64,000 bases of DNA, from positions 26,908,001 to 26,972,000 of the forward strand of contig OX597831.1 of NCBI GenBank assembly GCA_951406725.2. The letters are read 5' to 3'. The notes beneath the pieces are model-generated. The model was not told where the DNA came from, searched no databases, and saw only the letters and a list, made by a program, of their open reading frames with translations. The position numbers were made by a program, and so were the translations under genes. Position 1 is the stretch's first letter. Each line of letters begins with the position of its first letter. The stretch comes from Octopus vulgaris. Lineage: Eukaryota. This document shows positions 14,715 to 63,332 of the stretch, piece by piece.

Positions 14715-14985
14715 TACTTTATGGTGATATCTTAAAGTAGATTTCAGACATTGGCGTCTTTTTCTGGCATGTTGACGATCAGTGTACGTACTCGCTTGCC
14801 CTTGACCTTCGAAACGCGGAGTAGATGAAACAAAGGCGACTGAAGAAGGGGAATTTTCCTTGTTTTGTATGTCCTGTACTCTATTTTTTCGTTGTTTAAG
14901 AAAAATGTCCATTTCCTTGGTTTTGTGTTTATGTTTTCGTTTCTCATTGTGTTCGACGTTTTTTTTTTGGTGTCCTGTATCCATA
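14715..14985 (+). mobile_element. Short non-coding repeat, family E2, with a hammerhead-like motif
   Basis: Shares tcgaaa..ggagtagat...actgaWgaaggg and the 3' end gtcctgtaYccatata with family E copies, and abuts a TA-rich tract. Confidence 0.55.
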
Positions 14986-17900
14986 TATGCATGTATATAT
15001 ACATGTAGAGGTAGGTACGTACATATATGTATGTATATATGCATATGTTTTATATTTATTTATTAATTTATATATATATATATATATATATATATATATA
15101 TATATATATATATATATATATATATATATATATACATACATATTTATATATGTGTGTATGTGTGTATACAAACACAGGTGGCCTAGTGGTTAGAGCAGCG
15201 GACTCGCGGGTTTGAAACTTAGACCGGGCGATGTGTATGTTTATAAACGAAAACACCTAAGCGCGGCTCCAACAGAAGGTAATGAGGAACTTCTGCTGAA
15301 TCTTTGGCCACAACTTTCTCTCACTCTTTCCTCCTGCATCAAGCAGGTTAGAAACAAAAATTCCTGAAACGAAATTCTACTGACAAAATATCTGGACGAA
15401 CTGGAGTTATCCCTCTTAGATCAGTTTCCCTTGCGTCTAAAACTGATCGGTGTATAGATGATTGGTTTTCCCTTGTTTTCAACATGAATTTCCTCTGATG
15501 TGGGTACCGACTAAACATCTCTCTCTGGGAGTTTAAGAAAGTTCCTGGGTTAAGCGTTTTCCAGGTTTCTTGCCTTCTCGGCCAAGCATAGCTTACATCA
15601 TTTGCTTCCTTTAAGGTACGGTTCTGGTTGTTCTACGAACCTCCATTTAATTCTGTATGGTGTACTCTCCCTTGTAAACGAAATACGTCGCAGACCAGGG
15701 ACATGATATATACATATACATGTGTGTGTGTGTAATACACACACACACATACGTACTCTGTACAGTACACCATGATTTATCCTAGAAAGATATTTTTCAT
15801 CAAAAGTACTCAATAGATGTTCTAATAAATTCGAATTATTTAAAGTAGTACACACTCATACATGTATGCATTCATACATGCCTACGTATATGTGCATATG
15901 TATATATACACACAATCTGACAATCATATATGTATATGTACACACACAAACATATATATATGCTAACATGATACCGGTCAAGTATAGTGATGTTTACATA
16001 TTAGTCTCCTTTCAGCATCTGTTGACCTTTCTGCTTCAAGCTTCACTACATTGTCTTCTTGTGTCTCATTTTGTTTTCTTTCAGTTTTACCTCCAGCGAT
16101 TTTTCTGTTTCTTCTTGTGCTTCTTGTTATGTTGTAAGACTTCTCTTTAATCAACTTTATGAATAACTGACGTAATTTCCACGTCACTCTGCGCCAAACT
16201 GTCGCGTAGTCAGACTGTATGCAAGTGTTCCAGTAATTTTGCAATGTCGATTCTTTTTCTAAATTTTTTACCATCCTTATAATTCAAAATGACATGATGT
16301 AATAAAAGAAAACATCTTTTTTTTCAAGGCGTGTAAATTTAAAGGTTGTGCAGAAATTTTAGTTAATTAATAAATGAGAACAAGACTTCTTAATATCACA
16401 TGGTTACTAATTTTATGGCGTATAAAAAATGTAAGCTGATTTTGAGGAACAAAAACTAAAACGTAAATTGCAACAGTTTTCTTCTTCAAAAACATGACTC
16501 TAAAATGGCGAACAGGAAACACCTAAAACTTGTCTCATATAAAACCTATGTCGTGTTATTAATGCCTGAAGTCTGAGGTTAGGGTATCAAGTCGAATATT
16601 AGTCTATGAAGTCTCGTGTTAATGTATAAAATTGAAATCCGCATGTAAAACCGTGTAAAACTCAATGTTAAGATAATTGATGGGTAACTCTGGCACTTTT
16701 TTTTAAATGCATGGAATTGTGGTGAATCTTTAAGTGGAAACACTTCACAAGATGGGAATCCATTCATCTTCATCTATTATCCCTAGGAGTGTCGCATGCA
16801 TAGAGTCCTCGGACCCCTTCGCCATAAGCTCCTATCGGAAGCAATCGTTATTAGACTTAGAAGGTGGATTCCCAATCGGAATCAACTACGACAATGGATA
16901 TTATCCAATATTCTCGTTCTTAGTCTTCCCACTATTTCTCCTGTCAGACGAAGAATCTGTCCTGGGATTCTTTCCTGCAACATTCCAATCACACGCCTAT
17001 AATACCGAAGCTGTGACCTCTCTGCATTGAGAGGTCACTAGATAAACAATTTAGAAAATTTTTAAACGAATTTATTAGATCTGAGGGCCTTATTTTAGCA
17101 CAGTTTTACAAGGTTAACTAAATCATACTAGAATTGTACCTCTAATTGGAGAGGGGTATGTACAAATTCTGGTAGTTTGTATTGCCCGAAGACCGAAGCT
17201 GAAGAGAAATTTAGGAGACCAAGAAGCCTTAGAGATATTATGAATCCTTTACCTATTTATCAATTCAAAGAATTCGTGGTTTCAGAGATTATTCTTATGC
17301 CAGGTTACTACTAATCACTTTGTCCTTGAGGTGAGGGACTTCCAGACAAATATTCTGAAAATTTTCCTCCATAAAATGAAGACATTGTTGCTTCATAACA
17401 ATATCCAGTGCAGCTTAATGCAGGGAAGATAGTTGGTAGCCATGACGGAATGAAATATCTTTCGCTGTCTCCTAAAAAATCAGTTATAGTAGAAACTACG
17501 CCTTTAAGTATGAACCTTTCAATTTCGTAGTTACTTCGAAGGAGTTGAAAACTAGGATTTTAGTAAATAGCTGAAAGACGTTGCATTACAGGGAAGCTAA
17601 ATGAATTTTGAAGGATTTTAAGTAAATTATTGCGAAGGCACCTTTATGAATGCTGGAAACTGGAGAAAAAAAGACTGATAATGTTCAGGAACGGATGGGA
17701 AAGGAAGAAGGTGATTCTAGCTGTCAGCTGTTTAATGGTAAATAAATTATAGATTAGCGAGGAAGTTGTATCATCACACTCCACACTGTCTGAAATAAGG
17801 ACTTTCATAAACTTCGCTATCCACTACATAGGAATATTTTATGACCGCGAGGTTACCCTACTCAATAAATACTTAGGAGAGTTCAGGTAGATTATAAATA

Positions 17901-18534
17901 AGAATGAACGTCAGAGTAGAAAGTAACTGAGGCTGAAAGCATTTTCTAAGTTAACTTCCTCAGATCCCTCTATTATTTCATCTCATTATCTGTTCAAGCG
18001 AAAGCAGACGACATCAATATCGTCATTTGCAGCCGACACTACCACTTCACTTTACAGCATGAATTACAATAGAATCTTCGGCTTTATAAACTGAATAAAC
18101 ACTTGTGTACGACCAGCTAACGTTAGAATAAAATGTACTCCGTCAAAACGTTGTTGAAAGCATTTTTACACTAAAGACAATAAAAATAATGCTTAAGCGA
18201 CCTTGTCGCAGACTTTCGGTATTAGCGCACGCACAGACACACACAAGCACACACACACATTTATGTGTCTACGCGTAGGCCTGCGCTCTTTGGCATGAGG
18301 GTATATGTATGTATGTATGTATGTATGTATGTATGTATGTATGTATGTATGTATGTATGTATGTATGTGTATATATATATATATAATGTATATATATATA
18401 TATATATATGTATATATATATAATGTATATATGTATATATATAATGTATATATGTATGTATATATATATATATATATATATATAATATATATATTTATAT
18501 ATATATATATTTATATATATATATATATATATAT

Positions 18535-18911
18535 ATATATAAACGGCAGTTTGTCTGTGCGTGTTTCTGTGTGTCTGTTTGCTTGTACCCTCATCCTCAC
18601 CACGGCTTTCAACCGATTCTGATGAAACTTGACACACACATAGCCCAATGTCATAATTCAAAACTAACGCAGCGAAAATTTTGAAAAGTTCCCCCAGTTC
18701 TGAAAAAATCGATAAATTCGACATGGGGTCGAGAATCAGGAACACAAACCACAAACTGTGTAGGGGACGCAACTCCACCTTTTTTAACTATCAAAAAAAA
18801 ATTTACCATCATTTTTTTCCATTTTTTTGCTATTTTTTGGCTATAGCTCTCTAAAAATGCTTTATAGTTATTTCCCTTACAAACCTGAGCAACGCCGGGC
18901 GATACTGCTAG
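18535..18911 (+). mobile_element. Non-autonomous Helitron
   Basis: The 5' part reads tatataaacggcagtttgtctgt...aaccgattctgatgaaactt. The 3' end has a GC-rich hairpin cctgagcaacgccggg followed by CTAG then T. Confidence 0.8.
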
Positions 18912-62444: not shown

Positions 62445-62865
62445 TTTTTTCTCTCCTTTTTTTGACTCTCCCTTTTTTTTCTCCTTGTTTCTCTCCTTGT
62501 TTTTTTTTCTCTTCTTGTTTCTCTCCTTGTTTTTTCTGTGTACCTTTCTGTAGAAGGGTGTAGGCTCGAAACGTAAAAGACTTTTTCTATTCCTGAGCGT
62601 TATACTAATTGTTTTGTACACCACCTGTCTTCGTCTTTTGTTTTTTTCGTAAACTTTCCCTATATATATATATATATATATATATATATATATATATATA
62701 TATATATATATATATATATATATATATATATATACAAAAAAAAGACGAAGACAGGTGGTGTAGACAATAAACAGATGTATTAGTATAACGCTACGGAAGT
62801 GAAAAAGTCTTTAACGTTCCGACCCTACGCTCTTCCACAGAAAGAAACACAGAAAGAAGCAAAGT
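62445..62865. mobile_element. Inverted pair of family F elements around (TA)n; hammerhead-like motif at 62544-62579 (plus) and a decayed one at ~62805-62845 (minus)
   Basis: Plus copy reads cttt-ctgtaga-a-gggt-gtag-gctc-gaaa-cgta-aaag. The segment caccacctgtcttcgtctttt is mirrored by aaaagacgaagacaggtggtg. Confidence 0.85.
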
Positions 62866-62914
62866 ATATATATATATATATTCACACATGCATACATACA
62901 TCATCTTTCTTTTT

Positions 62915-63332
62915 TTCAGGATTGTCCTAAGTACAGCGCGTATCCTTTTGACTTTCTTCTCTCTTTTCTCTTGTCGAAGAAAATATTTCTCCAGCGTTCG
63001 TTATTTTACCGTCGTTCTGATCTAACGACCTTCCATGTTTGTTTTCGTTCGGTTTCCTTGTATGGCTCCACTGTCCTGTTTTTGTTCCCAGCTTTGACTC
63101 TCCATAAATCCCAAATTTTATTTTGGTACTTATGGGAGCAACTATCTTCGAAGACTCATAGTGTCGTTCATTGCTCGAAATGAGGAGTAGATAGACAGCC
63201 GAATACTGGCGAAGGGTCGTTGTTTATGTTACTTGTCCTGTTTTCCATTTGTTTCTCTCGTTGTTTGCGTATTGAACTCATTTGTTTTCGTATTTCATGT
63301 TGTTTACTGTTGGTGACGTCCTGTACCCATAT
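62915..63332 (+). mobile_element. Longest family E element
   Basis: Colinear with 18942-19265 (minus) and 39508-39826, and ends gtgacgtcctgtacccatat. Confidence 0.8.

Follow-up and report, generated by a model that had tools for sequence, protein, structure and literature searches.

We analysed a window of 64,000 nucleotides of the Octopus vulgaris genome (assembly GCA_951406725.2, contig OX597831.1, positions 26,908,001 to 26,972,000, forward strand; coordinates below are those of the window), in which an initial annotation made from the letters alone had listed 13 hammerhead motifs of type I. Our reading, which we hold to be probable, is that many 3′ ends of Penelope-like elements (PLEs) are scattered over the window, that five of the seven families bearing type-I motifs are 5′-truncated copies of autonomous PLEs, and that a further repeat, family H, which lacks an open reading frame (ORF), contains a hammerhead in the block order site-GAAA-CUGANGA (type SGC) that is predicted to cleave itself, likely as a dimer.

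Family H carries a hammerhead in SGC order

All three hammerhead blocks are present in family H, with GAAA lying upstream of CUGANGA. From 5′ to 3′ the motif consists of the 3′ strand of stem III, U, H17, the 3′ strand of stem I, a link of 2–6 nt and the 3′ strand of stem II, followed by GAAA with the 5′ strand of stem III, an extension, the 5′ strand of stem I, CUGANGA, an extra base and the 5′ strand of stem II. In both subfamilies, H1 and H2, stem III is extended via an AGUA/GAA loop, which we take to resemble loop E, into an outer helix of 6–7 bp that ends 0–2 nt before stem I. The order is not a circular permutation of types I–III; it is the one that Eckert et al. (2023, PMC10085705) call type SGC. 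Five copies lie in the window, all of them absent from the initial annotation, and one is intact:

39510–39659, + strand, H2: intact SGC order at 39518–39577, the sole match of the strict SGC descriptor in the window, loop-E side partly deleted; stem III 3′ strand 39518–39522, H17 A39523 (predicted cut after it), stem I 3′ strand 39524–39529, GAAA 39540–39543, stem I 5′ strand 39560–39565, CUGAUGA 39566–39572, extra A, stem II 39574–39577
39663–39825, − strand, H2: 5′-cut, without the cleavage-site block, tail to tail with the preceding copy
62900–63334, + strand, H2: SGC motif at 63155–63216, core (CUGGCGA) and stem I decayed
18911–19269, − strand, H2: SGC motif, core and stem I decayed
14800–15107, + strand, H1: young (99% identical copies elsewhere), 5′-cut within stem I, cleavage-site block missing

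For H1 as for H2, genome searches returned about 2,900 candidates. The motif was fully intact in 20 of 25 parsed H1 copies (30 were retrieved, by a query from which the cleavage-site block was absent) and in 8 of 28 H2 copies. Family majorities and the alignment agree on CUGANGA, GAAA, U16.1 and a non-G H17, and the extra base after A9 and the G10.1-C11.1 pair are retained. The letters of the helices differ by subfamily, stem III being AUGAG/CUCAU, ACGUG/CAUGU, ACGCG/CGUGU, ACGCA/UGCGU or ACGUA/UACGU, and stem I CGACAA/UUGUCG, AAGGCGA/UCGCCUU or GGACAA/UUGUCC. The type-SGC hammerhead of H is predicted to self-cleave.

The same order at the 3′ end of a Naiad element

A remnant of a Naiad element in locus L029 also ends in the SGC block order, with letters unrelated to those of H: stem III is ACCAU/AUGGU, stem I GGGCAG/CUGCCC and the core CUGAUGA, and the end has a different loop from H and an outer helix of 5 bp. 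Over 30 loci the order of this end (family N) was confirmed, 9 of 28 parsed copies being fully intact, and in four of the 30 a reverse transcriptase (RT) remnant, the end of the RT followed by a 3′ untranslated region (UTR), lay upstream. In Naiads the endonuclease is at the N terminus and the RT at the C terminus; no endonuclease was recovered in loci L441 and L442. H matches found in Naiad loci were rejected as a sign of kinship, being separate H copies in the flanks.

By eye, the letters of family N match the published Naiad_Obim and Naiad_Ovul ends (PMC8557442). Naiads were reported to be without a canonical hammerhead, and Naiad_Ovul was flagged as "HHR_half_core" (Craig et al., 2021, PMC8557442). 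The published end of the squid element Naiad_Esco can likewise be read by eye in SGC order, with different paired stems I and III and outer helix, and of the other published Naiad ends that were inspected (the last 330–420 nt, at 27 of 210 places), most were not parsable as SGC by eye. Bivalve and hemichordate Naiad 3′ ends have a different common motif, with complementary segments in several species, and this may be another structured RNA (PMC8557442).

Support for the SGC fold

Pairing was counted on 40 H copies, after nine of 49 candidate rows had been dropped as 5′-cut, deleted or unrelated; since its position in the alignment differs by one column from H1 to H2, the outer helix was excluded. 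Paired letters filled 93.7% of the 559 stem cells, compared with 35–61% when the registers of the stems were slid. Two-sided changes occupied 73 cells versus 23.9 in shuffles and fell on 9 of the 14 pairs, including 7 of the 10 pairs of stems I and III, and the covariation value of 0.445 (0.235 in shuffles) was reached by none of 500 shuffles. Stem II was 98% paired, but half of its pairs were G-U.

The strict SGC descriptor gave 39 matches in 1.33 Mb of mostly seeded loci; shuffled DNA (7.2 Mb) had none, and neither had an unbiased genome sample of 600 kb. Of the 39 matches, 36 came from the seeds of H1, H2 and Naiad; the other three rows were unseeded, and the two distinct ones printed are Naiad ends. 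Strict descriptors for the CSG and GCS orders had no match in the same test. With a loose descriptor covering six orders, type I alone was clearly enriched over shuffles (117 vs 18), and GCS gave 38 matches versus 21, without a recognisable family. A medium-strict search of an unbiased genome sample returned three SGC and three GCS matches versus 0–2 in shuffles, the SGC ones being AT-rich and not of family H; the H motif pattern had no match in metagenome and viral contigs. We concluded that the SGC structure of H and of the Naiad end is well supported, and that catalysis and the dimer mechanism are predictions.

Type-I families and their hosts

Relaxed and strict type-I descriptors were run on the window, with 60 dinucleotide shuffles as control. 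The frequency of the type-I motif was above this control: the relaxed descriptor gave seven matches versus a shuffle mean of 1.08 (maximum 3), and three versus 0.05 at a score of at least 7. Four of the seven correspond to annotated motifs (43515, 21496, 31945, 62548), and the other nine of the 13 escaped the descriptor through variation or decay of the core or the stems. The strict descriptor, with a single match, is too narrow, and an Rfam scan had no hammerhead family among the best 150 of 540 matches. By sequence reading, self-BLAST and genome copies, a hammerhead-like arrangement or a decayed copy was present at all 13 positions, and the motifs sorted into seven genome-wide repeat families, A–G:

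21489–21625, + strand, family A: Neptune-like PLE 3′ end, minimal type I, core CUGUCGA (A6U), palindromic ACGU stem III
33406–33563, + strand, family A: decayed copy
36163–36262, − strand, family A: copy cut within the ribozyme, absent from the initial annotation
55795–55970, + strand, family A: partly decayed copy
62515–62660, + strand, family A: copy tail to tail with 62736–62862
62736–62862, − strand, family A: copy with decayed GAAA
25897–26105, + strand, family B: end (3′) of another Neptune-like PLE, with the core CCGACGA (U4C) at 25979–25985
42296–42575, + strand, family C: type-I motif, U3 core, unpaired base on each side of a 3-bp stem II
27868–28129, − strand, family C: diverged subfamily, stems I, II and III differing on both sides from the copy at 42374
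28960–31701, + strand, family D: 5′-truncated copy of a Hydra-like PLE that is very young and whose 3′ UTR of 3 kb is of low complexity
31566–31616, + strand, hammerhead of family D: type I, 4-bp stem III, weak stem II
41637–41810, + strand, family E: Hydra-like PLE end, stem II decayed
46741–46838, + strand, family E: copy with a long stem I, a stem III that is a palindrome, and a change at G10.1
43455–43661, + strand, family F: young Hydra-like PLE 3′ end, canonical CUGAUGA, palindromic ACAUAUGU stem III
31793–32039, + strand, family G: minimal type-I hammerhead, U3-A8 core, AAUU palindrome

Each family has many copies in the genome (330–2104 candidates, of which 40 were scored), and counts by family showed stable stems and cores. 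The core CUGUCGA was found in 24 of 30 family A copies, CCGACGA in 20 of 23 matched family B copies (25 examined) and U3-A8 in 14 of 24 matched family G copies (30 examined); in family C, 20 of 25 matched copies (30 examined) had U3 together with either A8 or G8. Families E and F have the canonical core, CUGAUGA occurring in 24 of 28 matched family E copies (30 examined). In family C (42374 and 28008 minus) the unpaired base flanking the 3-bp stem II is kept, though all stems change two-sidedly between the subfamilies, and family D has a U-U opening similar to these unpaired bases.

The initial annotation had described the hosts as elements of roughly 100–450 bp without an ORF and had placed them among non-autonomous PLEs or retrozymes. 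The type-I topology, the link to PLEs and the association with microsatellites were borne out; the non-autonomous part mostly was not. Copies of the type-I families have a common 3′ end and widely varying 5′ ends, and RT and/or GIY-YIG endonuclease sequence lies upstream in families A, B, D, E and F. Extension of family A reached a Neptune-like RT and GIY-YIG (locus L119), as did that of family B (L246, L247). In family F a Hydra-like RT is followed by GIY-YIG (L061), and the hammerhead end flanks the ORF on both sides in L440. Family D also has a Hydra-like RT and GIY-YIG, and its locus L437 has the order hammerhead end, ORF, 3-kb low-complexity UTR, hammerhead. For family E the endonuclease alone, Hydra-like, was seen, as in L249 and L250; it lay upstream in 5 of 30 loci. 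The arrangement pseudo-long terminal repeat (pLTR)-ORF-pLTR, with the two-sided ends of L440 and L437 as examples, was thus found together with 5′ truncations and 5′ inversions.

A cysteine motif precedes the endonuclease in families A and B, and we take it as a mark of Neptune; families D, E and F are presumably Hydra-like, these names being given by likeness of motifs. In Pfam the GIY-YIG domain was matched at E = 6e-4, below the gathering cut-off, the RT was without a match, and a protein homolog search returned one unnamed protein. Within 1.5 kb upstream, no PLE remnant was found for family C in 30 loci, and one, unverified, was found for family G among 30.

Families A, B, D, E and F are therefore 5′-truncated 3′ ends of autonomous PLEs, and partners of the kind that had been proposed as a check, with RT and GIY-YIG and the same ends, exist for all five (endonuclease only for E). 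The short copies are 5′ truncations, and most of the type-I finding is already known biology, namely solo, 5′-truncated PLE ends, the ordinary debris of these elements. The proposed host length does not hold for the motif at 31566, which is part of the 2.7-kb family D copy, and the palindromic stem III said to occur in nearly all motifs is replaced there by a 4-bp stem III with a palindromic loop. Adjacency to microsatellites was strong in families A (28/30), B (24/25) and D (29/30) and weaker in F (7/30), C (11/29) and G (12/23), the background being 12%.

In family D, 201 nt were 100% identical in 40 of 40 scored matches, a number that two chromosomes alone supplied; at least 40 identical copies mark a very recent burst. 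Much of the 3-kb 3′ UTR of this family resembles an ordinary (TATG)n microsatellite, yet it is element sequence. Outside the window, other families with type-I hammerheads were seen in L342:3495–3560, L253:1225–1290, L343:689, L384, L387 and L418, and some of them end other PLEs.

Family H as a mobile unit

Four long H copies span from one 3′ end to the next in 707–830 nt, head to tail, and other copies run a short way past their own junction. No PLE protein match was found in H units, whose longest ATG frames are 37–107 aa. H is therefore the one family that fits the earlier idea of a non-autonomous element, and it is not type I. The 99% identity of H1 copies indicates that H1 moved recently. 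PLE remnants beside H in L253, L279 and L324 were considered as its partner and rejected, as they belong to other families. Tail-to-tail pairs of the same family occur in the window both for H2 (39510–39825) and for family A (62515–62862).

Predicted cleavage mechanism and alternative explanations

In the known hammerhead fold the outer-helix end of stem III and stem I lie far apart, with their ends pointing away from each other. Because the outer helix of H ends so close to stem I, a single molecule in which this helix is formed would, by geometry, be unable to reach its own stem I, and another molecule, or a second unit of a tandem transcript, would have to provide the CUGANGA block. Cleavage would be restricted to multimers, as the palindromic stem III does for type-I PLE hammerheads, and would release a unit-length H RNA of about 700–830 nt, which the RT and endonuclease of a PLE would copy into (TA)n sites. 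PLE "tails" that run past the junction have been described (PMC11167929), and the H copies that cross their junction are like these. In a wider version of this scheme, which we offer tentatively and regard as possible rather than probable, Naiads and their non-autonomous passengers would have kept a hammerhead rewired to the doubly pseudoknotted SGC order, in which a stem III stiffened by the loop-E-like element leads to an exchange of CUGANGA between partners and a ring-shaped dimer.

Several observations weigh against our main reading. Stem II is weak, two of its four pairs being G-U in H1 and H2, and a five-pair alternative register in H1 would sequester G8 and A9. The Naiad end forms about two stem II pairs, an upstream hexamer can pair with its stem II strand, the predicted monomer fold of the tested Naiad copy is without stem III, and stem II pairing is not readable in the squid end (PMC8557442). 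Published SGC ribozymes have a fourth helix that connects the far sides of stems I and II; for it, candidates of 4–5 bp were seen by eye in H1 and the Naiad end, and none was clear in H2. The two-sided changes stem from about six related subfamilies and not from 40 independent events, and the number of pairs with such changes was equalled in 27 of 500 shuffles. The unbiased 600 kb contained five fragments of H or Naiad, none of which passed the strict SGC descriptor, and the loose one showed no enrichment (34 matches versus 29 in shuffles). H and the Naiad end have a common architecture and not a common sequence, and no autonomous partner of H was found in the fetched loci. The dimer step is an argument from geometry, and in one tested PLE the hammerhead was dispensable for insertion in vitro (PMC11167929).

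A rather unlikely alternative is that the SGC fold is real and that the monomer cleaves, the outer helix serving as an opening switch with a 13–15 nt linker and its 3′ strand re-pairing downstream of stem II as a fourth helix. Published SGC ribozymes do cleave in cis, a few of them with links of zero length in a comparable position (PMC10085705), part of the loop is gone from the intact copy in the window, and the short downstream partners in H1 and the Naiad end could provide the fourth helix. These partners, however, are located in T-rich tails, and H1, H2 and Naiad all retain the outer helix and the loop, each with letters of its own. Moreover, the monomer folds predicted for H1 and H2, by a method that is unable to show pseudoknots, are dominated by the stem III/outer-helix hairpin.

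Improbable, too, is that the SGC-ordered structure is conserved without cutting any longer and acts as a binding or priming signal for a PLE protein. The weak or absent stem II with its competing pairings and the dispensability in vitro mentioned above would agree with this, as would the low activity of minimal PLE hammerheads (PMC4209133). Against it, each of three sequence families that are unrelated retains CUGANGA, GAAA, U16.1, an H17 other than G, the extra base and G10.1-C11.1, and natural hammerheads with a two-pair stem II have been reported (PMC3088659).

That all families are short non-autonomous retrozymes, as the initial annotation had it, is very improbable: most copies are indeed short and ORF-less, families C and G offered no verified partner ORF, and locus L022 has five family A units in a row, but 5′ ends vary widely and the continuous 5′ extension into PLE ORFs refutes this view for A, B, D, E and F. 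In that locus (L022:1501–2554) the units are five family A 3′ ends with (TA)n between each.

Finally, a chance by-product of an ordinary hairpin beside a CUGANGA-like word is hardly credible, for despite the lack of enrichment with the loose descriptor and a monomer folding energy no better than that of shuffles, strict SGC matches are absent from shuffled DNA as are strict CSG and GCS matches from the same test, stems I and III change two-sidedly, and the order recurs in an unrelated element.

Density and other features of the window

The window contains 19 family matches, or one per 3.4 kb, and 60 evenly spaced 10-kb stretches of the genome contained 46 family fragments, or one per 13 kb; by this comparison, made with query sequences drawn from the window itself, the window is denser in these hammerhead families than the genome sample. 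The 46 fragments per 600 kb scale to roughly 200,000 in the 2.8-Gb genome, many of them decayed. Simple repeats make up about one quarter of the window (15,980 bases masked). Other features are:

1090–2129: 15-bp tandem array, 69 copies, with open frames on both strands
5723–6487: near-palindromic inverted repeat with similar frames on both strands
36464–36764: GC-rich 70-bp tandem repeat, 4.3 copies, 96% alike
58024–59574, − strand: broken frames, which we take to resemble a Helitron or PIF1-type helicase

Comparison with known systems

Families A–G are like the PLE hammerheads of Cervera and De la Peña (2014, PMC4209133) in being type I, in the extra base after A9, the palindromic stem III and the U3-A8 variant, and in occurring mostly as solo truncated copies; the U3-A8 variant and the extra base were described there, the latter with G10.1-C11.1 as a hallmark. 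They differ in the A6U core as the majority of family A and in the unpaired base on each side of stem II in C and D. Natural U4C and A6C variants of low activity have been described (PMC3088659), and A6U as a family majority was not reported in the literature searched, though Lünse et al. (2017) may describe A6U. Families A, B, D, E and F are like the Neptune and Hydra PLEs of PMC8557442 in having RT followed by GIY-YIG, a hammerhead near the 3′ end, 5′ inversions and a (TA)n association; unlike these, the window families have 3′ UTRs of 0.5–3 kb rich in simple repeats, and their clade names were given by motif likeness. The initial annotation could not tell whether such elements had been catalogued in octopus. 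In part they have, as the supplement of the same paper includes the Hydra-1_Obim hammerhead and octopus Naiads. A count of 235 Rfam hammerheads was published for giant squid (PMC6962438).

H resembles animal non-LTR retrozymes (PMC7229834; bioRxiv 10.64898/2026.07.22.740005) in its ORF-less head-to-tail units with one hammerhead each and in its link to PLEs. Those retrozymes are type I and usually form tandem arrays, whereas H is SGC, 707–830 nt long, mostly solo or in partial dimers, and known from genomic DNA. The available parts of PMC7229834 make no mention of octopus, and the 2026 preprint, in its accessible text, uses type-I models and covers vertebrates, insects and one anthozoan. Family N agrees with the Naiad clade of PMC8557442 in being an octopus Naiad 3′ end with a (TA)n target and, to judge from the four loci with an RT remnant, with RT last; where a "half core" was reported there, the family N end parses as a complete SGC order with a weak stem II.

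Eckert et al. (2023, PMC10085705) validated cleavage by SGC hammerheads for metatranscriptome examples and report that the genomes of known organisms yielded none, and we found this hammerhead described only from environmental RNA. The literature searched holds no report of it in an animal element, a Naiad or a retrotransposon, subscription papers and supplements being sources that may bear on novelty; PMC13725137, in the part available, merely cites the permutation paper. Hammerheads that are not circularly permuted had no known host or role; the occurrence of the order in a young, high-copy animal retroelement supplies a biological setting and a ready assay. The SGC order also offers a direct explanation for a published puzzle, that of Naiads in which "half cores" are seen in place of canonical hammerheads, and it implies that standard type I–III descriptors undercount ribozymes in animal genomes. 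If the rewired hammerhead of Naiad and H is real, animal genomes would have their first ribozyme with a non-circular permutation, present in tens of thousands of fragments, and the block exchange between dimer partners, if true, would be a new way of restricting cleavage to multimers.

H has in common with the published type-SGC ribozymes (HRIMA-1 and variants, PMC10085705) the order site-GAAA-CUGANGA and the conserved core. The linker between stems I and II is 2–6 nt in H and typically 3 in the published examples. H and the Naiad end differ from these in the additional base that follows A9, in a stem II that has many G-U pairs or only two pairs, and in the continuation of stem III through a loop-E-like element; a fourth helix was not clearly found in them. 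The published SGC ribozymes come from metatranscriptomes, and those of H and Naiad lie in high-copy animal retroelements.

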